From contig JAYTSG010000004.1 in the NCBI GenBank assembly GCA_043745785.1, positions 570 to 64,569 of the forward strand: a stretch of 64,000 bases of DNA, read 5' to 3'. Origin of the DNA: a bacterium (GTDB taxonomy: Bacteria; Patescibacteriota; Minisyncoccia; Phycocordibacterales; UBA5272). Below the pieces are notes generated by a model. That model worked only from the letters and a program-made list of their open reading frames with translations, ran no database searches and was not told where the DNA came from. Positions 3,635 to 56,859 of the stretch are shown one piece after another; within the stretch, counting starts at the first letter, position 1, and each line of letters starts with the position of its first letter. Made by a program: the position numbers and the translations under genes.

Positions 3635-3860
3635 AAAGATTATGTCACTTTCAAAAATTTCAAACTTCCAAGTATTTTCATTCTTGAACTAGTAAGTTCA
3701 CATCTTGGATGCTGCGAAGGCAAGAATCCAGTATATGAAATCCATCATCATACGTTAATGTATACCTCAACCACTTTTATAAGATCTCAAGTATTTTGGT
3801 TCACCCCTCGATACTCATGCGAAATCCAGGTTGCAAGTTGCATAATTTTTACAAACAAAA

Positions 3861-4403: not shown

Positions 4404-4771
4404 GATGGATCTTTCTGTGGTCGTTAGGGGGGGTTGAAAAGGGCGGGAAACTTTAGTCTTTACTATATCATAATTAAGTATAAAAGTCAATAGTAAAGTG
4501 CTAGTTTTAGGCTCTCTTTCCTTTAAAAAGCTTTACAAATCAACAATATAGTCAATAATTTTGTGAAATAGTTTTGTTACAAATATACCCTCTTTTATCT
4601 TTTCTTTTACCTCTAAAATAACTCTTATTCAACGAGTAAATCTATTCAGTGGGATGACTAACCTTCACTTCATATGGCTTTAGACTTTTTTCAAAACTCT
4701 GACAGCCCAAGCTATCTCCTTTAGCTCTTTAAGGATAAACTTCACTCATTAACAATAATTTTTCAAAAAAT

Positions 4772-6151: not shown

Positions 6152-6643
6152 CTACGCTACCTTTGTCTTTGCTACTTCAGAGACCGCGATTGCAATACGC
6201 TGCATAGGAGACTTAAGGAGGTACGCAAGCTGAGAGAGAAGCACCTCACGAGAGGGAATGGTCGCAATAGCGGTCATTTCTCCTTGTGACTTGAACTCTC
6301 CATCGAAGATACCACCCATCAGCATGAGAAGTCCCTTGTGAGTTTTTGCAAACTCATAAGAGATTCTCGCTGGTGAGAGAAGGTCTTCACCACAAACAAC
6401 AGCCATCTCACTTGCAACAAGCGGGAAATCTCCTTTGATGCCAACCTCTTTGACTGCACGGTCCCAGAGGGTTTTTTTGACAACAAAGTAAGTACTGTTT
6501 TCGGCGCGGAGAGAGCGACGTAGTTCTTCGGTTGCCTTAACTGGCAAGCCTTTGAAACTAACGTATGCCACTGACTTTGCTCCTTTGAGGGCTTTTGTAT
6601 AACTTTCAATCAGTTCAATCTTCTTTGCTTTTGGTAGTGCCAT
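6152..6643 (-). CDS. rplJ: 50S ribosomal protein L10
   Basis: 163 aa. It lies immediately upstream of rplL. ...VAYVSFKGLPVKATEELRRSLRAENSTYFVVKKTLWDRA... is a typical L10 sequence. Confidence 0.9.
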   Translation of the reverse strand: MALPKAKKIELIESYTKALKGAKSVAYVSFKGLPVKATEELRRSLRAENSTYFVVKKTLWDRAVKEVGIKGDFPLVASEMAVVCGEDLLSPARISYEFAKTHKGLLMLMGGIFDGEFKSQGEMTAIATIPSREVLLSQLAYLLKSPMQRIAIAVSEVAKTKVA

Positions 6644-6844
6644 AGCAAGAGAAAATTAATTTGTAAGTCAAAAGTTCTTGTGAAAAAACTTTTGATAAAC
6701 CGTAAAAACGAGATGATACAAGGGTTTTCCTTGTATTCCTCCGCAGGAATTATGTGCCAGAAAGAATCTTTCGAAACGTTTTGGGACACCTACTTCTTAG
6801 GTTTACAAGAGGTAGTGTACCATAAAACGAAGGAAGATTCAATA

Positions 6845-6930
6845 GACTTCTTTCAAAACTCTCCCATGTCATTCCTGAATTAGCAGATTCACGATTGGCG
6901 CTGAGCAGTTTTGTCATCAAAAGTGAGTCC
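6845..6930. repeat. MITE-like dispersed repeat copy (left end GACTTCTTTCAAAACTCTCCCATGTCATTCCTGAATTAGCA; right end degenerate)
   Basis: It shares GAC(C/T)TCTTTCAAAAG and the CTCCCA..ATTCCTGAAT core with copies at 11153, 28733 and 30006. It lies in the rplJ upstream leader region. Confidence 0.55.
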
Positions 6931-6970
6931 AGAATCTAGGTTTGTATTGTAGAAATGCAATACTAACCTA

Positions 6971-7010
6971 GATCCCCGGTTCATTTGGGTACAAATGCCC
7001 GAGGATGACA
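6971..7010. repeat. 40-bp exact dispersed repeat, copy A (GATCCCCGGTTCATTTGGGTACAAATGCCCGAGGATGACA)
   Basis: Identical 40-mer at 11094..11133. Both copies are preceded by CAATACTAAC. Confidence 0.9.
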
Positions 7011-7055
7011 AATGAAGGGAAATCGTACAGATATACTTCGAAGTCCAAAAACGAC

Positions 7056-7081
7056 AAAAGCGCATCTTACGATGCGCTTTT
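7056..7081. terminator. Bidirectional hairpin terminator (AAAAGCGCATC ttac GATGCGCTTTT)
   Basis: 11-bp perfect stem with A/T runs on both sides. It lies ~85 bp downstream of the stop of the 7167..10283 minus-strand gene. Confidence 0.75.
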
Positions 7082-7166
7082 GTCTAGCTATGCTCTACCC
7101 CCTTAAACTATTTGTTCAGAATATTACTTTCAAAGATATATTCTTTGAAAGTAATTCGTGACGCAA

Positions 7167-10100
7167 TTAGTTCTTGATTGAGTAGCTTGCTGTAGGGAAG
7201 TTGTAAATCTTAACTCCGTCGTATGTTGTGTTACCACCAACAACGTCAGTCCACTGGAAATCATTAGCAGTATTGGTAACCTGTGTTGAAACAGATACCG
7301 TAGCTCCTGATACAACTGTTCCTGTAGGAACAGCGTAAAGACTGAAAGTCTTAGAAGATCCAGCTGAAAGTGAATATGCTGTTGAGAATGAACACGTAGT
7401 AACGGTTGAAGCGATTGTACACGTTACATTAGGAATCGTTGCTGAACCATCTGCGAGTCTTGCTGAAGCGAGAGTAAGAGCTCCTGAGAGTCCTGACGCA
7501 CCGCTTGAGAACTTGAGCTGGTTAACATTGATTGAACCATTAGCGTCTGGAACGACAGTAACTTCGCCAATCTTATTCTCAGCACCAAGGATGAGACCTG
7601 ATTTTTGAACTGTGTCAACAGTAACTGATGGCTTTGATGCAACGAGTGTCATTGCATTTGCTGAAATGGCAGTAGTTGTTGAAACTGTAGTACCATTTCC
7701 TGATGTAGCCTCAATGTAAGTAAGTGTCGTTGTTGAGATGACACCTGCTGTCAGTGATCCACCAGTTGAAGAATTCTTAAAGCCTGAGTACTTAACGGTC
7801 ACTGGTACATCGGTACCGTTGAGACCAATTGCAATACTAAGACCTGTTACCTTTGCAATACCACCTACGACTGAAGCCTGTACGCCATTAACAGTAACTG
7901 ACTCTACTGAATCATTTCCTGTAATAGAGAAACGAAGCTCACGCACGGTTGCGGCACTGTCTTGTGCAGTCTTGATCTTGTAGGTTGCTACATTACTACT
8001 GACGCCACCGACCACAAATTGTGAAACTGGTGATGATGAGACAATAGCAGGGAGACCAAGAGTTGCCGCTGTTGTTGTAATAGCGACACCAAGTCCTGTT
8101 CCAGAGACGGTAGTATTAGTACCTGAAACTGGTCCACGAGTTGAAAGATCAAGAGTTGCTGTAACTGTACCTGAAGTAACACTTCCTATATCTGCATACA
8201 CATCGAATGTCTTTGTTCCGTTCATAGGGACAACAACATCAGAGAATGAAATAACAGTTGAAGAAGCGCTCACATTTCCTACTGGAGTACCAAGAGTCAT
8301 TGAACCAGTCTTAAGTGAAAGGTTAGTGATATTGGTAAGAGGATAACCAGTAGTACTAAGCGTGACTGTCGCGCTGTTTACTACTGCATCTTCCGCTGAA
8401 TCAGCCTGAAGGGTAAATGAACCAATACGTACGTTTGCAGTATTTGGAGCAACGGTAGCTGCAGCAAAACCTGATGTGCGTCCGTAGCTTCCTACACCAG
8501 ATGAAACAGTAAGGTTGTTACCATTAACACCTGAGCTAGCAACACTCACGATCTCGCTTGAGCTTTGACCTTGAGCATTGTTACCTGCACTACTAAGCTG
8601 AGCTAGTACAGAACCTGCTGTATAGCTTACTGATGTAGTTGACTTGATGTCAGCCTTTACCGATACAGTGACTGTCTGTCCTGCAGGGATAATGAGTGAT
8701 GAACCAAGATTATAGGTAAGAGCACCAGATGACCAGTTCTGTGAAGAACTGATTTGTCCACCATTGAGGTAAAGTCCTACGTTTGTAAGACCCGCCGCTG
8801 CTGGAGTCATTGAACCTAGTACTGGAGTGACATTAAGGGTATTAACCTTAACATCTTCTCCGTATGCCTTCATGGTAAATGAACCAATAGTCATGTTCGT
8901 AGCACCGCCAGTTACTTTACTAGCAACGAAAGCTGGGTCGACGTTCACAACCACGGTTCCTTTGTTGACGGTAATCTGTGGATATGCTGAGTTACTACTG
9001 TTAAGAGGTAGCGTTGCGACTGTTGCAGCAACGTTCACTCCAGTAAGATCACGATCTTCGAACATAAGGTCTGCCACGTTCTCAACTGAGAAAGTCATAG
9101 TACGGTTTGAACCTTTTACTATGTCTCCTCTCACATTGATAGTGTGTGAACCAGTGCGAAGGAAGTAAGGCATAGTCCCAAGATCAAAGACAACTTTATT
9201 GTTGTTCATTGCATTGATCATAGCTGGACCTGCAACCTTAGTGCCATCTACATAGAGTGAAAGATTTGCAACAGAGTCAACTGGTGCAGAACCGACAAAC
9301 TTAAAGGTAGCTGCCTTAAAGTAGACATCGCGAACACCTACACTTGCTGTTGCATCCCAAACGTTGTAGTTGGTTGTTCCAGCATCCACGGTGCGAGCAC
9401 CAGTGACAAGAGGGTTGAAGTTGACGCTTGCGGTAGTAATACCAGAAGCGACAGTAAGGGTGTTACCCATTACATTTGTGAAAGTAGAAGCTGCTGAACC
9501 CATAGCAGTGACGCTGTTGAGTTTAACACCAACTGCATTACCTCCAGATGTTGATGAAAGGTCAGCTCTAACAGTAATAGTACGAGTACCACTAACTGAG
9601 AAGAGTCCTGTTCCTGCATTAAAACGGATGTAACCACCTGTTACAACAGAAGCTGCGTCTGTAAGACGAGTGTTTCCATCGTAAAGGTATACGTTGTTAA
9701 GTGTAGAATCTGTAGAAACACCGATTCTTTGTAGTTCGATGTTTGTTACGGTTCCATTACCTTTGAAAGTAAAATCAGCGAGACGAGCTCCTGACTGTCC
9801 TTGTACAAGCTGTCCTGTAGGCTGTGATCCTGAAAGCATTACAGATACTGGACCTGTGTTACCGGTAGGTGGTACTGGATTTCCCGGTGTTGGCACAGGG
9901 TTACCAGTAACTGAACATAGCTGATTGAGGAGACCACGAGTTCCTGCGAACACGTTTCCTGTAGGAGAGTTGATTCCGAGTTCAGCAAGCTGAAGCATCT
10001 GGAATTTATTAACAGCGGCACGAGTAGCTGGACCAAACTTACTGGTTTCCATTCCTGGAGATCCAGCACCTGATTCAGCGACACGTGTCTGAGGGTACAT

Positions 10101-10283
10101 GTTAAGAACTTTTTGAAGATTCATGACTTGTACTCCTTTTGAACCCATCTTCATGTTCGTATTGAACACGTAAGAACAGTTCATGGTTGGAAGGGCGAGA
10201 GCTGCAGATGCTGTTGAAGCACCAACGATAGCTCCTCCTAGGGCTACTGCAATTGCAGCGGCCTTGATTGAGAGTTTACTCAT
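7167..10283 (-). CDS. Large secreted cell-surface protein: Sec signal peptide, N-terminal peptidoglycan-binding (PGBD-like) domain, Pro-rich linker, then ~900 aa of repetitive Thr/Ser/Val/Gly/Asn-rich beta-sandwich (Ig-like) repeats
   Basis: 1038 aa. The signal peptide is MSKLSIKAAAIAVALGGAIVGASTASA. The PG_binding_1-like segment is GSKGVQVMNLQKVLN...SKFGPATRAAVNKFQ. The linker is NPVPTPGNPVPPTGNTG. The remainder is low-complexity repeats, so the many antisense ORFs in the track are artefacts. Confidence 0.8.
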   Translation of the reverse strand: MSKLSIKAAAIAVALGGAIVGASTASAALALPTMNCSYVFNTNMKMGSKGVQVMNLQKVLNMYPQTRVAESGAGSPGMETSKFGPATRAAVNKFQMLQLAELGINSPTGNVFAGTRGLLNQLCSVTGNPVPTPGNPVPPTGNTGPVSVMLSGSQPTGQLVQGQSGARLADFTFKGNGTVTNIELQRIGVSTDSTLNNVYLYDGNTRLTDAASVVTGGYIRFNAGTGLFSVSGTRTITVRADLSSTSGGNAVGVKLNSVTAMGSAASTFTNVMGNTLTVASGITTASVNFNPLVTGARTVDAGTTNYNVWDATASVGVRDVYFKAATFKFVGSAPVDSVANLSLYVDGTKVAGPAMINAMNNNKVVFDLGTMPYFLRTGSHTINVRGDIVKGSNRTMTFSVENVADLMFEDRDLTGVNVAATVATLPLNSSNSAYPQITVNKGTVVVNVDPAFVASKVTGGATNMTIGSFTMKAYGEDVKVNTLNVTPVLGSMTPAAAGLTNVGLYLNGGQISSSQNWSSGALTYNLGSSLIIPAGQTVTVSVKADIKSTTSVSYTAGSVLAQLSSAGNNAQGQSSSEIVSVASSGVNGNNLTVSSGVGSYGRTSGFAAATVAPNTANVRIGSFTLQADSAEDAVVNSATVTLSTTGYPLTNITNLSLKTGSMTLGTPVGNVSASSTVISFSDVVVPMNGTKTFDVYADIGSVTSGTVTATLDLSTRGPVSGTNTTVSGTGLGVAITTTAATLGLPAIVSSSPVSQFVVGGVSSNVATYKIKTAQDSAATVRELRFSITGNDSVESVTVNGVQASVVGGIAKVTGLSIAIGLNGTDVPVTVKYSGFKNSSTGGSLTAGVISTTTLTYIEATSGNGTTVSTTTAISANAMTLVASKPSVTVDTVQKSGLILGAENKIGEVTVVPDANGSINVNQLKFSSGASGLSGALTLASARLADGSATIPNVTCTIASTVTTCSFSTAYSLSAGSSKTFSLYAVPTGTVVSGATVSVSTQVTNTANDFQWTDVVGGNTTYDGVKIYNFPTASYSIKN

Positions 10284-10928
10284 AATTTTTTTGAAGTGAT
10301 AAGATTTTTCTAACTCGTTTCTCTTTATAGAGTCAGCATTGTTTTTACTTGTGTAGTTTCGACATAACTAGTAAAAACAAACTAAATGACAAAACGAAGG
10401 GGTCGCTTATGCCAAAATACGAAGCGTTTTTATTTGCGTCACTATTCTGTTTTCAACGATCACTTTTATTCTGCCTTTTAAGATACTCTATAAATAACGT
10501 ATCTCAAATACCAGAGGACGCTCTCAAACAGAGACGTCTACAAGAGAGTATAGAGCTTCTTAAGAAAACTGCAAGGTTATTCCAAAATAATTTGAATATC
10601 ACAACTCTTCATCTTCTCAAAAAACTAATTTACAACTCTTGAAGTACATACAGTACCTAGAGGTAAGTATACCACAGAGTGGTCAAAAAGTCTACAAATA
10701 TAAAAGCTTTTTCCTCTTTTTGTATAAAAAGTAAGCTCAGTAGATTGAGGACTTTTCTTGACTCTGTGCGTATGTACGTCCCTCACAGATAAGGATACGA
10801 GAGAAATGAAGGATTTGGTTCACGAGAGACGTAAAGACATGAGGCCAAGATACCAGCGTCATACGTGAATGTGGTCATTCAGCGTCATTCGTATCTGGTG
10901 ATACAAATGATGGGCAGCACGCAACCCT

Positions 10929-11075
10929 AGTGTCATTCTGGAAGGGCTTTGTACACAAAGAACTATCCGGAATCCAGGTTGGTATTCCAGACATGAAATG
11001 CAGTTGAGTACTTTACAACCTCATTCAGATCTGGATTCCGGATATTTTTGAATACAAAAATTCCAGAATGACATA
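10929..11075. repeat. Palindromic (hairpin-forming) inverted-repeat element with nested IRs GTCATTCTGGA...TCCAGAATGAC and ATCCGGAATCCAGGT...ATCTGGATTCCGGAT
   Basis: The nested inverted repeats are read directly. They are related by motif (AACTATCCGG[A/T]ATCCAGGT) to the element at 12555-12800. Confidence 0.7.
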
Positions 11076-11093
11076 AAACTCAATACTAACATG

Positions 11094-11133
11094 GATCCCC
11101 GGTTCATTTGGGTACAAATGCCCGAGGATGACA
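11094..11133. repeat. 40-bp exact dispersed repeat, copy B
   Basis: Identical to 6971..7010. Confidence 0.9.
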
Positions 11134-11152
11134 CGCGAGGAGTAATACATGA

Positions 11153-11231
11153 GACTTCTTTCAAAAGTCTCCCACGTTATTCCTGAATCAGCCCCTAGGA
11201 CAACTTTGGTAATGAGGGTTTTGAAAGAGGT
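11153..11231. repeat. MITE-like palindromic element (TIRs GACTTCTTTCAAAAG / CTTTTGAAAGAGGT)
   Basis: ~79 bp. Terminal inverted repeats and an internal CTCCCACGTTATTCCTGAAT core are shared with copies at 6845, 28733 and 30006. Confidence 0.7.
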
Positions 11232-11453
11232 TTAGTGTATCTCACCTCTATTTCTCTCTAAAATAGAACCTGTAGCCCTTTATCGAAACTTACTACTATA
11301 TACCTAATGAGTCTCCCCTCAGTAAACTGTTCCTTCACTCACTCCATTCGTTATCTACAGGGAATGTTAGGGAACCAATGGTTTTCTAAACCCTTCCTTG
11401 TGGAACACCTTCTCAGCAGAGCTGTAGGGAATAGAACAAGTAAAGAGAGAGCT

Positions 11454-12290
11454 CTAACGAAGCACATATCTACTCCATCTTTTTTCACCAATTCTTTCAA
11501 GGACATGGTCAAAGACAAGTGTATTGAGTTCTCTCTGTATTGTTTTTTCACTACAACCTTTTATCTTGCTTGATATGTCTTTTATACTCACATCTACACC
11601 TACAGAGAAGAGTCCCAATATTTGTTCCCTTCTACTCTGCTTTCTAGCTTTAAATATTCCCGCTGGAATTTTTCTTTCGATTACCATTCTTTGATACTGA
11701 TAGGGAGAGCTAACATTTTCTTTGTTTGTTTTATCATCTAATTTCATCGTATAAGCTTCTCCTGTTGTCAGAGCTTCACTCTTTTGTGTAGGTTTAGTTA
11801 TCAAATTTTGATCAGCTTTTTCTTCTACGAAAACTGCTCCAATACCTTCTTCCTTAGGGACAAATGTTGGAGGTAACCCTACAGAATGATTCTTTGCCTC
11901 GGTGAGCACTATGTCATCTTCTTTTAAAAGAAGGGCACTCGAAAAAGTCGGGCGTCTTTTTTGGAGAGCGTTACTAAGGACATTGAACCCTTCGACGAGA
12001 AGTCTTCCGTTCATCTCAGAGACAGTCCCTGAGAAGGTTGCAACATGCAGAAGTGAGACAACTTCTCTTACTTCATTTAAAGACAAAGAGTATTCACGAG
12101 CAATGTCACTTGTTTCAGAAGAGGCAACTTTAGTGACATGTCCAAGTATACTCAAAGCTGAAGATCGAAGTCTATTTTTTATAGGATCTTGAGCACTAAT
12201 TAAGTCAGTAACAAGATAAAGGCCCGTCACTAAACGCTCTGTTTTCTGTGCTATCAAGACTTCCTGTTGTGTGTTTTTTGTCTCTGACAT
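11454..12290 (-). CDS. Putative transcriptional regulator: novel N-terminal domain plus C-terminal winged-helix HTH (DeoR/ArsR-like)
   Basis: 278 aa with an ATG start. The C-terminus ...RREQILGLFS...VSIKDISSKIKGCSEKTIQRELNTLVFDHVLERIGEKRWSRYVL is an HTH followed by a wing. The gene is flanked by 1.2 kb and 0.75 kb of repeat-rich non-coding DNA. Confidence 0.5.
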   Translation of the reverse strand: MSETKNTQQEVLIAQKTERLVTGLYLVTDLISAQDPIKNRLRSSALSILGHVTKVASSETSDIAREYSLSLNEVREVVSLLHVATFSGTVSEMNGRLLVEGFNVLSNALQKRRPTFSSALLLKEDDIVLTEAKNHSVGLPPTFVPKEEGIGAVFVEEKADQNLITKPTQKSEALTTGEAYTMKLDDKTNKENVSSPYQYQRMVIERKIPAGIFKARKQSRREQILGLFSVGVDVSIKDISSKIKGCSEKTIQRELNTLVFDHVLERIGEKRWSRYVLR

Positions 12291-12295
12291 ACTGT

Positions 12296-12482
12296 CTTTT
12301 GTGTTGTAATACTGTAGAGAAGATGATCTGTATTATGTCTTTTTAAATGCTAATAATGTCTTTTAAATACTTGTCTTTTTATTTGTCCTTTTAAGGGACA
12401 AGAGGCTCGTCTGTCCCCTATTCTATTCTTTTTTTATTTTCTGTCAAAATAGACAAACTTAAATTTTATTGTCTTTTATAAA
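12296..12482. promoter_or_regulatory. Array of 5-6 direct iteron-like repeats TGTCTTTT(T)AAAT plus a small hairpin (GGGACA..TGTCCC) in the promoter region of the 11454..12290 regulator gene
   Basis: Copies are read at ~12293, 12349, 12367, 12375, 12388 and 12471. They lie immediately upstream of the minus-strand start at 12290. Confidence 0.45.
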
Positions 12483-12524
12483 TGAGCTCTACCTATTTTC
12501 TATTTCAGAAATTAATCTGTGTAA

Positions 12525-12800
12525 ATTCTGTATCTGTATCTGTGTCTGTGTCATACCGGAAGGATTTTGTACTCAAAAACTATCCGGTATCCAGGTCTAT
12601 AATTGTAGAGAGTATCCCCCTAGAAAAAATGCCAGTACGTTAAACATTCACACTGGGTGCGTGATTACTCTGGTTTGACCTATCGTTAAAGTCAAAACCT
12701 GGATCCTGGATATGATGAGTACATCATATCCAGGATGGTGCACTCGTTATTCTGGAATGGCATGCAAGATACTCAGTGCGACTGGAGACTGGAGACTGGA
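12525..12800. repeat. Composite repeat region: (TCTGTA/TCTGTG) tandem run, inverted ATCCGGTATCCAGGT / ACCTGGATCCTGGATAT / CATATCCAGGATGG motifs, and a (GACTGGA)x3 tandem run
   Basis: Read directly. It shares the ATCCGG(A/T)ATCCAGGT and TTCTGGAA(G/T)GGC motifs with the element at 10929-11075. Confidence 0.65.
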
Positions 12801-13058
12801 ATACTTGATTCTGACATACTAGACCTCTTTCAGATGTCTTATGTATACATGTGTAAACATCTAGAATACATAGAGCTGTAATAGTGCTTAGCTATATGTA
12901 TTTGCAAACCAAATGGGTGACTCAACTCCGCGAGGAATTATGTGACCACATAACTGAAATAACTGACGAAATGAGCTTTATTGTCACCACAAAAATGTCT
13001 CATATTTTGCTATACTAGAAGCAACTCATTATTAAAATAAAAACGTTTGACTACACAT

Positions 13059-15359
13059 ATGGCAGAATCAAAAGACGAGAGAAAAAGAAAAAATAAACGG
13101 GACCCTTTGCACACAGAGACTGTTCTTGCCATGCTCTCAGTAATGACTCTCATCTTTGCATTATTACTCGCACTTGGCGCGACACATTTAGGAGGTAAAG
13201 GCGGAGAAATTATTTTTAAAGGATTTTATTCTCTCTTCGGTGTCTTTGCTTTTGGTATACCTTTTGTTTTTCTTTCTCTGACCTACTACCTTTGGAAAGA
13301 AGAGCTTCCTGACCTCCCTCTTTTAAAAAGTATCGGCACTGGACTACTTCTTTTTGGAATCGCCATTGTAATGGAAGTGAGTGGTAGCTCTATCTCTCAT
13401 CCAGCCGGAATGCTTGGTGAAATGCTTTCAATGCCACTCTTAAACTACTTCTCTCCTTTCTTTGCCCTTGCTATTGGTAGCGCTATTATCTTTAGCGGAC
13501 TACTTTTGTCACTGAACAGAAAGCCAACATTTAGTTTCTTTAGCACTATGTTTCTCTTTATTTATGACTTCCTGCCCTCTTTTTCACTCTTTAAAAAGAA
13601 AGTGTCGATACAAGAAGCAGCAACTATCCCTGTTATAGAAGAAGAATTTGAAGAGATACTCCCTCTTGGTGCAGATTTTTTTGAAGAAGAGGAACAAGTT
13701 CGTCGAAAAGATGTGCGAGAAGAACTCTTTAAGACTTTACATGTCGATGACGACGAAGAGATAAAGCCAAAAAAAGCGAAAGAAGAAAAACCAAAGCAAA
13801 TTATTCTGACACCAGAATTTGTTGCGCCACCTCTCTCACTACTTAATGCTGATTCTGGTAAAAGCGGAGCGGGAGACAGTCGTGCAAAAATGGCGACCAT
13901 ACAACGTACTCTCGAACATTTTAAAATACGTGTAGAAATGGGAGAGGTTACCGTCGGGCCGACAGTAACCCAATTTACCTTAAAACCAGCACAAGGAGTA
14001 AACCTTTCCAAAATTGCGGCGTTACATGACAATCTGTCTATGGAACTCGGTGCTGAATTTCTCCGTATCGAAGCACCAATACCAGGAAAAACACTCGTCG
14101 GTATTGAAATCCCTAACGAAAGAAAGTCAACTCTTGGACTGCGGTCAATGCTTGAACTTGATCAATTTATTGAGTCAAGCGCACTGACACTTGCTATTGG
14201 TAAGAGTATTGTTGGTAAACCTATTTACGGAGACCTCTCAAAGATGCCACATCTCCTCGTCGCTGGAGCCACTCGTACTGGTAAATCAGTCACCCTGCAG
14301 AATCTCCTCATTTCTCTCCTTTATAAAAATTCCCCGTATGACCTTAAGCTTATTATCCTCGATCCAAAACGTGTAGAATTTACTGCATACAATCATTTAC
14401 CCCACCTTTATACACCTATTATTAAAGAGCCAAAAGGAGCTATCAAAGCTCTCTCTTGGTCTATACAAGAAATGGAAAGGCGTTATGAAGTCTTGTCTGA
14501 ATATGGTCAAGTAAATGTTGACGACTATAATAAAAAAATACTTTCTCCTGCACTTGAAAAAGCAAGAAAGAAACTCAAGGAAACAGGAGAAGAGCCAAAA
14601 AATCTTCCACCAAAACTACCGTATATCATTATTATTTTTGATGAATACAATGACTTCATGCTTTCTTATCCAAAAGAAATTAGTCCACTCATTACCTCAC
14701 TTACTCAAAAAGGACGTGCGGCTGGAATACATCTCATACTCGCAACACAACGTCCTGATGTGAAAGTTATTACGGGTACCATTAAAGCGAATATTCCAGC
14801 TCGTATCGCATTGAAAACTACGTCACAAATAGACTCACGCACTATTTTGGACACTTCTGGCGCAGAAGACCTTCTTGGTAACGGCGACCTGCTTTATATG
14901 GCGAGTGACAATCCTCGCCTTGTACGTATACAGGCACCTTTTGTTTCAACCGAAGAGATACGTGCCGTTGTATCCCATATCAAAGAATCATTCCTTGATT
15001 TTATTCCTGATCATATTGATTTCTCAAAAGTAAAAGCAACACAGTCTCACGACAACGACAATAATAATGAAGAGTCTGGTGCTGAACCAGAAAATGACGA
15101 GGATTATATGAGCGCCAAGGATTATGTGCTTTCTACAGGCAAAGCTTCAACTTCTTCATTACAAACTGCCTTTAGATGGGGGTATAACAAAGCTGCACGT
15201 ATCATGAATGATCTGGAAAGATATAGTATTATCGGCCCTGCTCGCCCAGGAGAAAGATATAGAGAATTACTTACAAGTAGCACAGAAAGCTCAAAAACAT
15301 CTTCAGAAAGAGAAATAGAAAGCGACCCGCTCGATACCATGTTTGAAAATACAAAATAA
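13059..15359 (+). CDS. ftsK: DNA translocase FtsK/SpoIIIE (N-terminal TM domain, acidic linker, RecA-like motor, C-terminal gamma wHTH)
   Basis: The Walker A motif is VAGATRTGKSV. The beta-domain ...HLILATQRPDVKVITGTIKANIPARIALKTTSQIDSRTIL... and the gamma domain ...ASTSSLQTAFRWGYNKAARIMNDLERYSIIGP are present. The track ORF starts at TTG 13047, and the first ATG is at 13059. Confidence 0.9.
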   Translation: MAESKDERKRKNKRDPLHTETVLAMLSVMTLIFALLLALGATHLGGKGGEIIFKGFYSLFGVFAFGIPFVFLSLTYYLWKEELPDLPLLKSIGTGLLLFGIAIVMEVSGSSISHPAGMLGEMLSMPLLNYFSPFFALAIGSAIIFSGLLLSLNRKPTFSFFSTMFLFIYDFLPSFSLFKKKVSIQEAATIPVIEEEFEEILPLGADFFEEEEQVRRKDVREELFKTLHVDDDEEIKPKKAKEEKPKQIILTPEFVAPPLSLLNADSGKSGAGDSRAKMATIQRTLEHFKIRVEMGEVTVGPTVTQFTLKPAQGVNLSKIAALHDNLSMELGAEFLRIEAPIPGKTLVGIEIPNERKSTLGLRSMLELDQFIESSALTLAIGKSIVGKPIYGDLSKMPHLLVAGATRTGKSVTLQNLLISLLYKNSPYDLKLIILDPKRVEFTAYNHLPHLYTPIIKEPKGAIKALSWSIQEMERRYEVLSEYGQVNVDDYNKKILSPALEKARKKLKETGEEPKNLPPKLPYIIIIFDEYNDFMLSYPKEISPLITSLTQKGRAAGIHLILATQRPDVKVITGTIKANIPARIALKTTSQIDSRTILDTSGAEDLLGNGDLLYMASDNPRLVRIQAPFVSTEEIRAVVSHIKESFLDFIPDHIDFSKVKATQSHDNDNNNEESGAEPENDEDYMSAKDYVLSTGKASTSSLQTAFRWGYNKAARIMNDLERYSIIGPARPGERYRELLTSSTESSKTSSEREIESDPLDTMFENTK

Positions 15360-28604: not shown

Positions 28605-28732
28605 GCAAATAGTATACCACTTTGGTTTATCATTAATAATTCTAGATCTTCCGTCATTTATTGTTAATGAGCAGAGAAAGTATTTTTATATTTTGAACTA
28701 AATCATATTTTTTTCTTTCTTTTTATACAATA

Positions 28733-28890
28733 GACCTCTTTCAAAAGTCTCAAAACTTTCCTGCATTAGGATTCCTGCGAAGACAGGCCCAAGACATGAA
28801 TTTGATAATTCAGAATACAGTATGTATTATAATACTATTTGATTTCAATTTTTACTTAGAGTGATAGCAGAGAGGCTTTTGAAAGAGCTC
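28733..28890. repeat. MITE-like palindromic element, longest copy (TIRs GACCTCTTTCAAAAGTCTC / AGGCTTTTGAAAGAGCTC)
   Basis: ~158 bp. The ends match the family at 6845, 11153 and 30006. The internal ATTCCTG...AATTCAGAAT motif is shared. Confidence 0.7.
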
Positions 28891-29159
28891 TACTACTTTC
28901 CAGAATCATCAAGAAATCTAGCTTCGAAGAGTTAGAAATAACCACAATTTCTAATAAGACAAATCTGAATTTACCTTTATTCCTTCCTACGCTATATGCA
29001 ACCCGCAAGAGTTATCTTAGGGGTTGACCGTCTCATCTGCCTTGTTCTAAGAGTTGTGGGAGCTTTTTGAACTACTGAGAAAGGTCTAGGTCTTACAAAA
29101 CTAATTCTATTTCTTTTTAGTTGCATGCCGAACAACTTTGAAAATATCTCAACTAAACA

Positions 29160-29795: not shown

Positions 29796-30005
29796 GGGGA
29801 TATTTTACCACAAAAATGAGAAACAAAAAATGTTGTTTCAATGAGCTGTGAGTTACTAATAAGTCTTCGTCTTAAAGTTTCTTTTTCAGAATGAAAACCC
29901 CTTAGCACAACTAAAATCTAGTCGCGCGCGTAGTTTAAAAGAAACACACATTTAGTGCTACTACTCAGAGGAAAAGCACTCTACCTTTTTACAACACTTA
30001 TAATA

Positions 30006-30092
30006 GACTTCTTTCAAAACCACCCCCCTATCATTCTTGAATTGGGTAATTCAGGGATGATAACTTTGTTTGTTAGGGTTTTGAAAGAGGTC
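30006..30092. repeat. MITE-like palindromic element, near-perfect copy (16-bp TIR GAC(T/C)TCTTTCAAAACC)
   Basis: GACTTCTTTCAAAACC...GGTTTTGAAAGAGGTC with an inner IR CATTCTTGAATT / AATTCAGGGATG. 87 bp. Confidence 0.8.
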
Positions 30093-30350
30093 TATTAAAC
30101 TGTCTTCCTCTAGTGTCCTTCGCTTGCGTTAGTAAACTATCTAAAAACTCTCCGCAAGAAACAGTAACTCTCACTGTGAGGGAGCAGGTCTATCGATGAT
30201 CATCGTAAAACAAATTTGATGTACACTAAACATCCCAGGACTTACGCCACGGGGTATTATGCGCGAATAAATCGCTCCACGATATGTTATGAGCTTGTTT
30301 TATGTCTATAAAATACTGTGTTTTAATGAAGAGAAACTTTTTGAAAAACA

Positions 30351-56022: not shown

Positions 56023-56859
56023 TTATTTCTTTCCTACTTTTCTTCTCGAAACAATGTGCACATTTGAGTACTTCTTCGGGCTTCTTGTCTTTCTTCCGCC
56101 AGTAACTTTACCTTGCTTTGTCTTCGGACGCTTGGTACCTCGTGGTGCTTTTCCTTCACCTCCTCCATAAGGGTGATCTACGGCGTTCTTGGCCATTGCT
56201 CTGGTCTTTGGTCTCCAACCAAGATGGCGGGCACGCCCTGCCTTACCGAGATTACGAAGTCTGTACTCTTCATTGGAAACTTCTCCAATACAAGCAGAGC
56301 AAAGATCGCGTATCTTTCTTACTTCTGTTGAAGGAAGTTTAACTGAAGTGAATCCTCCATCATGAGCCACCACTTGAGCAAAGACTCCAGCTGAACGAAC
56401 AAGCTTTGATCCTGAGCCAGGATGTAATTCAATATTATAAATGTAAGTACCTACGGGAATATTCTTGAGCGCAGTACGGTTTCCTGGTTCTAGTGGAGCT
56501 TCATCTCCTACTTGGAAAGTGCTACCTACTTTCACTGATTGTGGAAGGAGCACATAACGCTTCTCACCATCCATATAACAAACAAGTCCAATAAAGCCTG
56601 ATCTGTTTGGATCGTACTCTACGGTCTCAATCTTAGCTTTTATACCAATCTTGTTGTAGGAAAAGTCAATATCTCTAAAAGAGCGCTTATGTCCTCCTCC
56701 TCTTGCTTGACTGGTGATTCTTCCAAACGCATTGCGTCCTGATCCTCGGCGAAAACCTTTAGTGAGTGGCTTATACGGCTCATTGGTCGTCAGTACACCA
56801 CGATAGGTGACCGTTGCCATGTTTCTCCTTGATGGGGTAGTTGGTTTATATGTCTTCAT
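56023..56859 (-). CDS. rplB: 50S ribosomal protein L2
   Basis: 278 aa. ...HPGSGSKLVRSAGVFAQVVAHDGGFTSVKLPSTEVRKI...GGGEGKAPRG.... Confidence 0.95.
   Translation of the reverse strand: MKTYKPTTPSRRNMATVTYRGVLTTNEPYKPLTKGFRRGSGRNAFGRITSQARGGGHKRSFRDIDFSYNKIGIKAKIETVEYDPNRSGFIGLVCYMDGEKRYVLLPQSVKVGSTFQVGDEAPLEPGNRTALKNIPVGTYIYNIELHPGSGSKLVRSAGVFAQVVAHDGGFTSVKLPSTEVRKIRDLCSACIGEVSNEEYRLRNLGKAGRARHLGWRPKTRAMAKNAVDHPYGGGEGKAPRGTKRPKTKQGKVTGGRKTRSPKKYSNVHIVSRRKVGKK

Follow-up and report, generated by a model that had tools for sequence, protein, structure and literature searches.

A stem-loop at the start of the transcript is the classical arrangement of the leaders that stabilise the mRNAs of abundant envelope proteins, and tandem promoters are present in several S-layer genes. 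Long leaders or tandem promoters are known for slpA of Lactobacillus, for slpA of Thermus with SlrA/SlpM, and for ompA of Escherichia coli with its 5′ stabiliser. Arrays of direct DNA repeats are read by other proteins, among them the plasmid Rep proteins, which are winged-helix proteins. To our knowledge, almost nothing is known about gene regulation in the Patescibacteria or Candidate Phyla Radiation (CPR), which make up a large and mostly uncultured share of the bacteria. Here we describe a locus of such a bacterium, located in a stretch of 64,000 nucleotides (assembly GCA_043745785.1, contig JAYTSG010000004.1, positions 570 to 64,569) that we call the window. The interval at positions 10284–13046 of the window holds the gene for a protein of 278 amino acids (aa), here called p278, together with long flanks that separate it from a surface-protein gene on one side and from ftsK on the other.

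This interval is probably a conserved chromosomal regulatory neighbourhood of Paceibacteria/Nomurabacteria-type CPR bacteria that comprises p278, its repeat array, the leader of the neighbouring gene and palindromes particular to the lineage. Its most interesting content is a single-copy, nearly invariant leader that is paired in every genome with an unannotated regulator, built from an Avd-like domain and a winged helix, and with a conserved repeat array. A previous sequence-only reading of the interval had missed the leader, an extremely conserved and structured part of the left flank. Our statements on promoter use, leader function, binding by p278 and repeat mobility are inferred from conservation.

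Conserved gene order at the p278 locus

The p278 gene (11454–12290, minus strand) is flanked by 1170 bp toward the surface-protein gene (7167–10283, minus strand) and by 756 bp toward ftsK (13047–15359, plus strand), which is transcribed divergently from it. The surface-protein gene is the partner located downstream of the leader, and its 1038-aa product is rich in Thr, Ser, Gly and Val, with a signal peptide and a weak match to PG_binding_1. Homologs of p278 with 80% (in the closest relative, L001), 51% and 43% aa identity are found in the same gene order where the contigs reach far enough. In those contigs, EF-P, RecA, a small gene and FtsK are followed divergently by the p278 homolog, a gap, a protein of ~1040 aa and L10/L12.

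We scanned one genome per species with a 23-nucleotide (nt) block of the left flank, which belongs to the leader core, as the query. The genomes of 44 species each have exactly one copy of this block. Wherever a locus includes enough sequence, this copy is located 230–920 nt downstream of the p278 homolog and 231–362 nt upstream of the ATG of the surface-protein gene, a homolog of which is located directly downstream of the leader. The p278 homolog, the leader core and the large open reading frame (ORF) are all on one strand in these loci, and ftsK is divergent in 41 of the 41 other loci that were scored. Among the scoreable loci, the gene order is kept down to about 40% protein identity. There are more than 3700 homologs of p278, of 270–320 aa, all of which come from Parcubacteria- or Paceibacteria-type assemblies and are unnamed or generically named. 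p278 is a core gene of Paceibacteria-type (CPR) bacteria and no insertion.

This result bears directly on the proposal of the sequence-only reading that repeats bracket p278 and its flanks as a single cassette, namely a mobile element that landed between the surface-protein gene and ftsK and has decayed, with loss of its transposase. Both flanks do contain related repeats, inverted and direct, both spacers are the longest among the relatives compared, and a 12-nt direct repeat, AAATGAGCT(C/T)TA, at 12480–12491 and 12969–12980 brackets the extra DNA of the right flank. However, gene order is identical in the scoreable loci of the 44 species genomes, which rules out a cassette or a decayed transposon. 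In addition, the p278 family has the large membership given above, and six-frame scans contain no transposase-like remnant. The repeats do not mark the ends of a unit but are internal to the spacers, and further copies of them are found at unrelated places in the window. We leave this proposal almost no probability.

A proposed structured leader upstream of the surface-protein gene

The left flank appears to be mainly the control region of the surface-protein gene, to judge from a series of conserved promoter-like and paired elements, all on the minus strand. The candidate promoter P1 (TAGACT-17-TGGTATACT, 10666–10694) is recognized by consensus and conservation, and a short hairpin, AGGTACTGTATGTACTT (10642–10658), is located directly after it. 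A second, P2-like promoter (TTGCAG-16-TATACT, 10547–10574) has a −35 TTGC and a −10 TATAC that are invariant or nearly so in the 34 species that could be aligned. The cross-species consensus in this alignment is TTGACT-17-TGnGATACT for P1 and TTGCAx-16-TATACT for P2. The −10 element of P1 belongs to the TGnTATACT type that is typical of this genome and precedes many of its genes. The simplest reading of these sequence features is a 5′ leader, which would be ~257 nt long if transcribed from P2 and ~376 nt long if transcribed from P1.

Counted from the proposed P2, the structured leader or predicted 5′ untranslated region (UTR) occupies positions 10284–10545. In gene orientation, P2 is followed in the 34 species by the invariant sequence TGTAGACGTCTCTGTTTGAGAGCGTCCTCTGGTATTTGAGATAC and then by TTTATAAG, GTATCTT and GATCGTTGACAACAGAATAGTGAC. 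Thereafter come a species-variable insert of 0–150 nt, a second conserved part that ends in the hairpin SL3 (10339–10382), and an A/U-rich approach to the ATG. The invariant core that begins with TGTAGACGTCTCTGTTTGAGAGCGTCCTCTGGTATTTGAGATAC is contained in the hairpins SL1 (10511–10544) and SL2 (10477–10508), and it is 100% identical in 34 of 34 aligned species. Altogether about 45 nt of the leader core are invariant in all aligned species, which is extreme given that the flanking proteins are only 35–50% identical among most of these species.

Pair counting in the proposed helices (38 pairs) yields 97.5% standard pairs, and the covariation score was reached by none of 500 shuffles. All seven pairs of the outer helix of SL3 change on both sides (for example, TAC/GTA in the window corresponds to CGT/ACG in L001) and the inner 5-bp helix is invariant, while a long-range helix includes one pair with a compensatory change from GC to AU. 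The G·U pairs of the leader would be A·C on the opposite strand, and thus they exist only on the gene strand. The window leader folds with a z score of −3.3 on the gene strand versus −1.9 on the opposite strand. RNAalifold, applied to the whole leader minus the variable insert, gave an unstable and different global fold, and our structural statements are therefore limited to helices that held up in pair counting. With a covariance model of the conserved core, a single match was obtained in the window, at 10404–10561 on the minus strand (126.5 bits), and the leader is absent from Rfam 15.

We propose that P1 and P2 act in tandem, each with an immediate hairpin, to drive the leader, with SL1 at the 5′ end of the P2 transcript. 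Most likely, the leader would then stabilise the surface-protein mRNA, control this mRNA, or both. A leader of this kind stands out because the genome seems otherwise to be largely leaderless and to lack Shine-Dalgarno sequences. The latter are found at only 5 of the 49 genes of the window, and many genes have an extended −10 element, TGnTATACT, only 6–7 nt before the ATG (such as those upstream of 28237, 32393, 42080, 63832 and 16705), which suggests that leaderless mRNAs are widespread. The exceptions that do carry leaders are p278, the surface-protein gene and ftsK.

Another possibility is that the ultra-conserved block is not part of a 5′ UTR, but either a separate gene for a small RNA or a site that acts as DNA, for instance by binding a protein. 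Sequence-specific recognition would fit a run of about 45 nt that is invariant and shows no covariation better than helix maintenance does, and a −10-like TATAAA precedes the ATG by about 10 nt in this genome with its apparently common leaderless mRNAs. Furthermore, the DnaA-box consensus TTATCCACA occurs between P1 and P2 in 31 of 34 species. However, the position and orientation of the block with respect to the surface-protein ATG are fixed in all genomes, and the stretch from the leader core to the ATG showed no hairpin with a U-run of the terminator type. SL3 covaries, the G·U pairs are restricted to the gene strand, and there is neither a cluster of DnaA boxes nor a switch in GC skew. On balance, we consider a separate small RNA or DNA site improbable, and we favour the 5′ leader.

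Three further observations concern this region. The DnaA box (alignment rows L012–L055, columns ~178–190) is a perfect one that sits between the P1 hairpin and P2, and neither the window nor L001 has it. The ends of many independent metagenomic contigs fall about 23–81 nt after the start of the invariant block (L003, L009, L011, L019, L022, L023, L026, L031, L033, L042 and L053), likely because co-occurring species share identical k-mers there. Finally, a small hairpin upstream of P1 (10740–10800, minus strand), whose loop starts with a conserved AGGGACG, is common to the subclade of the window (L009, L049). Its stem varies, with CTGTG/CACAG in the window, CTA(T)CG/CGTAG in L009 and TGTG/CGCA in L049.

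p278 and the RRGACA array

There is no curated family match for p278 in Pfam and NCBIfam profile searches. An AlphaFold2 model, built from an alignment of 60 sequences, has a predicted local distance difference test (pLDDT) score above 90 in both of its domains, which are connected by a disordered and poorly conserved linker. In this model, p278 consists of a four-helix bundle like those of 23S rRNA intervening-sequence (IVS) and Avd proteins (residues 2–111), a flexible linker of ~90 residues (disordered at 128–214), and a winged helix of the DeoR/ArsR-like type (220–277). The predicted winged helix is composed of helices 220–227, 236–242 and 248–260 and strands 264–267 and 274–277, with pLDDT values of about 90.

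Foldseek matches the N-terminal domain to the S23-family structures 2gsc and 2rld and to bAvd (8ub7_E) with target-normalised TM scores of ~0.8 (E 2e-4 to 2gsc), and it matches the C-terminal domain to the winged helices of BlaI, HlyU, ArsR, Fur and TubR. On the sequence level, the Pfam profile 23S_rRNA_IVP (PF05635) is matched over its full length with 15.8 bits, which is below the cut-off of 33.8, and sub-threshold matches to the Pfam profile HTH_DeoR are present in 54 of 60 family members (best E 0.0016). The winged-helix gene that the sequence-only reading had placed at 11454–12290 is thus borne out by the model, by Foldseek and by the sub-threshold Pfam matches. The winged-helix call is supported by the predicted fold, and membership in a named family is not established by sequence score. 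Another protein that also has 278 aa (encoded at 56023–56859) was considered as a possible paralog of p278 and is unrelated.

The p278 gene is preceded by a predicted promoter, TTGACA-16-TAGAAT (12420–12447, minus strand), which has 11 of 12 consensus matches. Its counterpart in the upstream regions of 42 species is TTTACA-17-TAGAAT. There are eight direct repeats of the sequence RRGACA (TGTCYY on the plus strand) at 12279–12477 on the minus strand. They overlap the first p278 codons and run through the 5′ UTR and the −10 region, and one site lies upstream of the −35 element. These repeats are the promoter iterons of the sequence-only reading, and they hold up as eight TGTCYY sites at 12279–12470 on the plus strand; repeats of this kind are conserved in the 42 species. 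No other cluster of eight copies exists in the 64 kb, where two others were found with four sites each.

Among the 42 species, RRGACA occurs upstream of the p278 homologs 5.1 times per 260 nt in the sense orientation and 0.24 times in the antisense orientation, compared with a background of 0.41. Typically 5–9 repeats are present on the same strand, within the p278 promoter and a 5′ UTR of ~125 nt. Copies are fixed relative to the ATG at −8 (27 of 42 species) and −19 (20 of 42), and the commonest spacing is 11 nt. Further conserved copies are found just upstream of and over the −35 element, as well as at the −10 element and the predicted start. Since the repeats are conserved, strand-specific and fixed in position across the 42 species, they look like a genuine operator array, and these features make autoregulation plausible. 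Thus, the RRGACA repeats are a probable autoregulatory operator array. Probably, the winged helix of p278 binds this array and represses transcription of its own gene; an alternative, less likely variant is that p278 acts on its own translation. A flexible linker attached to an oligomeric bundle would explain, in a more speculative vein, why irregular spacing of the repeats is tolerated.

The strong strand bias and the lack of Shine-Dalgarno sequences make an RNA-level role of the array a serious rival. The repeats might work in the transcript, or through a factor other than p278, for example as an A-rich translation enhancer or repressor site that replaces the Shine-Dalgarno sequence. The best-fixed copies, at −8 and −19, are at the position of a ribosome-binding site, most genes of this genome (all but 5 of 49) have no Shine-Dalgarno sequence of their own, and the extreme strand bias (5.1 versus 0.24) is of the kind expected for such a motif. 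The N-terminal fold is also common to Avd and 23S-IVS proteins, which are associated with RNA. However, there are conserved copies upstream of and over the −35 element and at the −10 element and start, which would be outside or at the very edge of the transcript, and the other leadered genes of the window (the surface-protein gene and ftsK) do not have the motif. Winged-helix readers of direct DNA-repeat arrays also have precedent, and TubR is among the structural matches. We therefore regard the RNA-level role as a minority possibility that deserves attention, and we favour a DNA operator for p278.

RRGACA is enriched neither downstream of p278 nor upstream of the surface-protein promoter (0.34 per 260 nt), and the surface-protein leader includes only one exact copy. 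A link from p278 to the surface-protein gene via RRGACA is speculative. The sequence-only reading had offered, as a second option, an autoregulated locus that is bracketed by its own binding sites. Of this idea, autoregulation remains plausible by virtue of the array in the promoter of p278, and the bracketing does not, because the flanking palindromes described below are not copies of the promoter repeat.

Palindromic repeats and lineage-specific DNA in the spacers

Both spacers are about 400–600 bp longer than in relatives. The distance from the p278 stop codon to P1 is typically 66–200 nt, including a canonical terminator, and is 753 nt in the window, and the spacer between ftsK and p278 is 272–613 nt elsewhere (typically ~350 nt) and 756 nt in the window. 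These unusual lengths are due to palindromes, a 230-nt segment shared only with the closest relatives, unique DNA that is unexplained, and two microsatellites. The shared segment (10701–10930) is 84% identical to L001 and is found in part in L009 and L049, where it includes the GTGAGGGACG hairpin. The flanks had also been called exceptional for a gene-dense window. The 1170-bp gap is indeed the largest between ORFs of 120 aa or more, but there are at least eight other gaps of 520–920 bp in the window, and its gene density had been overstated.

The element M3/M3′ (10931–11073, 143 bp, on neither strand in particular) is the nested hairpin that had been noted in the left flank as an element of 147 bp. 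The hairpin is real, with outer arms that match at 13 of 13 positions and inner arms of 17 nt that match at 94%, and it folds with a z score of −7 to −8 on either strand. It is followed by the module M2 (11081–11133), which aligns by eye as a diverged right arm of the M3 type and has a second copy, 96% identical, at 6958–7010. The ends of this M3/M2 family are TGTCATTCTGGAA...ATGACA, and there are two copies each of M2 and of the M3 left arm in the window. In L001, the orthologous element lacks the right arm and part of the loop of M3/M3′ and reads as an M3 left arm, a loop of 24 nt and then M2. Relative to L001, the window has gained ~85 nt inside that loop, and the gained DNA carries the near-perfect right arm M3′. 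Position 11104, inside M2, is where read contigs identical to the window come to an end, as is expected at a repeat.

The related motifs that had been reported from the right flank are likewise present. A second M3 left arm (12548–12596) is 86% identical to 10930–10979 and has partner motifs at 12697–12761, where 12697–12712 is complementary to the M3 left arm and 12703–12736 holds a perfect palindrome with 15-nt arms. This copy is scrambled, in that a left arm is followed by 100 nt, a partial right arm, the palindrome with 15-nt arms and the start of a second left arm. It forms part of a region between the divergent promoters (12500–12985) that is specific to the lineage of the window and also contains the tandem runs and a remnant of an H arm (12821–12835; see below). 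The tandem runs, TCTGTA repeated 3.8 times (12527–12549) and GACTGGA repeated three times (12780–12800), are as previously described. In a contig from another strain (L005, 98.3% identity), each of these microsatellites differs by exactly one unit and there are no other differences in the right flank. The AAATGAGCT(C/T)TA pair mentioned above encloses ~490 bp of window-specific DNA and may be a duplication footprint or a chance occurrence.

The second family of palindromes is represented in the left flank by the element H (11144–11240, plus strand), whose arms are AGACTTCTTTCAAAA and TTTTGAAAGAGGT. The mismatched positions of these arms are U·G wobbles on the plus strand only. This element is also located at the orthologous site in L001, with about 90% identity. 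The family has arms AGACYTCTTTCAAAA and TTTTGAAAGAGGTCT, and the arm motif occurs 11 times in the 64-kb window, in five separate gaps, where 1.2 occurrences are expected. Intact H hairpins are found at 11144–11240, about 28728–28897 and 30003–30100 (arms at 11152/11219, 28732/28877 and 30005/30079), and remnants, which like the intact copies are confined to intergenic gaps, are found at 4682, 6844 and 12821. The elements have arms of 16–22 nt and measure 97–170 bp overall. Both repeat families also occur in unrelated intergenic gaps of the window.

Motif frequencies across the window were compared with those expected by chance. GTCATTCTGGAA has 17 matches compared with 7.2 expected, a number that was reached in none of 100 shuffles. 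Four matches to ATCCGGWATCCAGG with at most two mismatches are present in 10284–13046, all of them in the two flanks, and one more, with two mismatches, is at 3817; at three mismatches, there are eight matches in the window versus 3.8 expected, only a modest excess. Between rplJ and the surface-protein gene, the gap at 6643–7167 is also occupied by such DNA, with the H left-arm remnant at 6844, the M2 copy and two palindromes, of which that at 7053–7084 resembles a terminator. L001 has a gene with an NYN domain in the corresponding interval.

A scan of metagenomes for H-type termini produced 27 contigs with a GC content of 0.42–0.50, whose inner sequences are unrelated to those of the window. 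What these contigs share is the termini and not the cores. At least 14 of them come from one assembly (JFJP01, within L056–L082) and have a common unit of 64 nt. In this 64-nt repeat, the inner segment occurs in both orientations with respect to slightly asymmetric ends, in all four combinations, the end pairs being AATAGACC... / ...GGTCTAAT and ATTAGACC... / ...GGTCTATT. In the copies of the window and the metagenomes, target-site duplications are at most an ambiguous TA, and none longer was seen. No autonomous insertion sequence (IS) with matching termini was seen in the window or in the 27 contigs.

H and M3/M2 are two families of small, non-coding, interspersed palindromic repeats, which may be similar in origin to MITE, REP or BIME elements, by resemblance only. 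Presumably, elements of both families accumulated, duplicated and became scrambled in the two spacers of this lineage. It is also conceivable that the palindromes (M3/M3′, M2 and H) have a function, be it as RNA stabilisers or terminators of p278, as binding sites of a host factor, or as a switch that inverts the surface-protein promoter. At the orthologous site, identity to L001 is about 90–92% for H and the M3 left arm, compared with roughly 77–83% for the neighbouring genes, and U·G wobbles are kept in several H copies. The lineage also does not have the canonical p278 terminator of most other species, and ATCCAGG/CCTGGAT motifs of other loci are found with 6 of 21 matches in the spacer between p278 and the leader, which represents 2.7% of the DNA (L001, L020, L027, L031, L035 and L050).

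However, nearly all other species have these genes and the leader but not the elements, the copies of which are mosaic, truncated and scrambled. An invertible promoter switch of the fimS type was rejected: inverted repeats are present, but the segment between them is only 49–117 bp and includes no promoter-like site, neither neighbour of the interval, ftsK or the surface-protein gene, is a recombinase gene, and five of five independent read contigs have the same orientation. Overall, a functional role of the palindromes seems unlikely to us, and we prefer to view them as accumulated repeats. The spacers of L020 and L050 carry TGTCATTCCCGCGAAGGCGGGAATCCAGG, which resembles the M3 arm.

Other identities considered

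The statement of the sequence-only reading that flanks of 1.17 and 0.75 kb lack a convincing ORF agrees with our data. The longest ORF in the flanks (10349–10642, plus strand, 97 aa) is interrupted in L001 by frameshifting indels of 1 and 2 nt and overlaps the leader on the opposite strand, and it has a sub-threshold Pfam match only and no match in NCBIfam. Six-frame Pfam scans of 10690–11453 and 12490–13000 revealed no domain, transposase or pseudogene remnant. An alternative genetic code that would hide ORFs was rejected, as stops of all three kinds are present in every frame of both flanks.

There is no Rfam 15 match at the gathering threshold in the whole window, and a search to E 10 returned for the interval only chance-level miRNA models (E ≥ 0.08). 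No tRNA or tmRNA was found. A plasmid-type iteron origin or oriC was rejected, given that the interval has no DnaA box (the window has 2, with 2.9 expected) and that synteny is chromosomal. A replication origin, terminus or dif site near ftsK was rejected as well: DnaA boxes are not clustered, and GC skew, which is negative over nearly all of the window, does not switch in a sustained manner at the locus. An origin from phages or other viruses was dismissed, since neither the leader core nor M2 occurs in any of 2.9 million viral contigs. Nothing relevant was found in the literature on the H arm sequence, on S-layer promoters of CPR bacteria or on structured RNAs of these organisms.

Implications

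Several points weigh against reading the interval as a regulatory neighbourhood with a leader, an operator array and mobile palindromes. The promoters, the start sites and the continuity of leader and ORF are predictions from consensus and conservation alone. Covariation is confined to SL3 and one long-range pair because the leader core is for the most part invariant, and this invariance could reflect a constraint at the level of DNA or protein binding rather than RNA structure. Binding of p278 to RRGACA is likewise a deduction, and the strict strand bias would also fit an RNA-level motif. With regard to the palindromes, the conservation of H and the M3 arm above coding identity hints at some function, and ATCCAGG-type motifs recur in the same spacer of a few distant species. 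Moreover, neither a parent transposase nor a target-site duplication longer than a possible TA was found for the palindromes, the copies of which were counted in 64 kb of the genome.

A more ambitious hypothesis, which argues by analogy and which we consider doubtful, is that p278 and the invariant leader are parts of a Paceibacteria-specific circuit for control of the cell envelope. An Avd-like oligomeric hub, pentameric by analogy, might present tethered winged helices to the RRGACA array, and the core of ~45 nt might represent a new class of cis-regulatory RNA that senses a protein or a ligand. If so, this would be a mode of operator recognition that has not been described for bacterial repressors, and a new RNA class would govern the main surface protein of bacteria whose mRNAs are otherwise leaderless. 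Conversely, if the leader is an ordinary stabiliser and the repeats are neutral, then the locus is a routine conserved regulatory region with junk insertions. In either case, the locus offers handles on regulation in CPR bacteria. There is an unannotated regulator family with thousands of members and a clear candidate operator. There is also a single-copy leader that is not in Rfam, whose core is conserved at a level near that of rRNA and which is located upstream of what is probably the main envelope protein. Lastly, there is evidence that the few long intergenic regions in these reduced genomes are colonised by small palindromic repeats, at which metagenomic assemblies break.

Comparison with known systems

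The N-terminal 110 residues of the p278 model form the same four-helix bundle as 23S rRNA IVS proteins and the bAvd proteins of diversity-generating retroelements (PF05635). p278 differs from these in that the bundle is fused to a DNA-binding domain and has no reverse transcriptase or rRNA context, and in that its sequence scores below the curated cut-off. p278 resembles TubR with tubC, the iteron-binding Rep proteins of plasmids and DeoR-type repressors through its C-terminal winged helix and through the 5–9 short repeats in the same orientation at its own promoter. Unlike these systems, p278 is a chromosomal core gene without a partner for partition or replication, the repeat unit of its array is only 6–7 nt with irregular spacing, and its winged helix is predicted to be tethered to an Avd-like bundle by a disordered linker of ~90 residues.

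The palindromes can be compared, by architecture and not by sequence, with MITEs, the REP and BIME elements of enterobacteria, the Correia/NEMIS elements of Neisseria, the RUP and BOX elements of pneumococcus, and ERIC. They share a size of 100–170 bp, the absence of coding capacity, long imperfect hairpins and conserved terminal inverted repeats of 13–21 nt. They also share a distribution over several intergenic gaps, mosaic or truncated modules, differences between close relatives and a coincidence with assembly breaks. However, the copy number here is low (three intact and three remnant H elements and two to three of the M type in 64 kb), two elements have persisted at the orthologous site in spite of about 20% divergence in coding sequence, and neither a target-site duplication nor a parent IS was identified.

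The leader most resembles those of S-layer and other envelope genes. Here, too, there is a large, secreted, wall-anchored surface protein, along with two predicted tandem promoters, a stem-loop at the start, a long leader and an adjacent regulator gene. The leader described here would nevertheless be much longer (about 260–375 nt), and, unlike the simple stabiliser hairpins exemplified by ompA, it has an invariant core of ~45 nt that is shared by at least 44 species.

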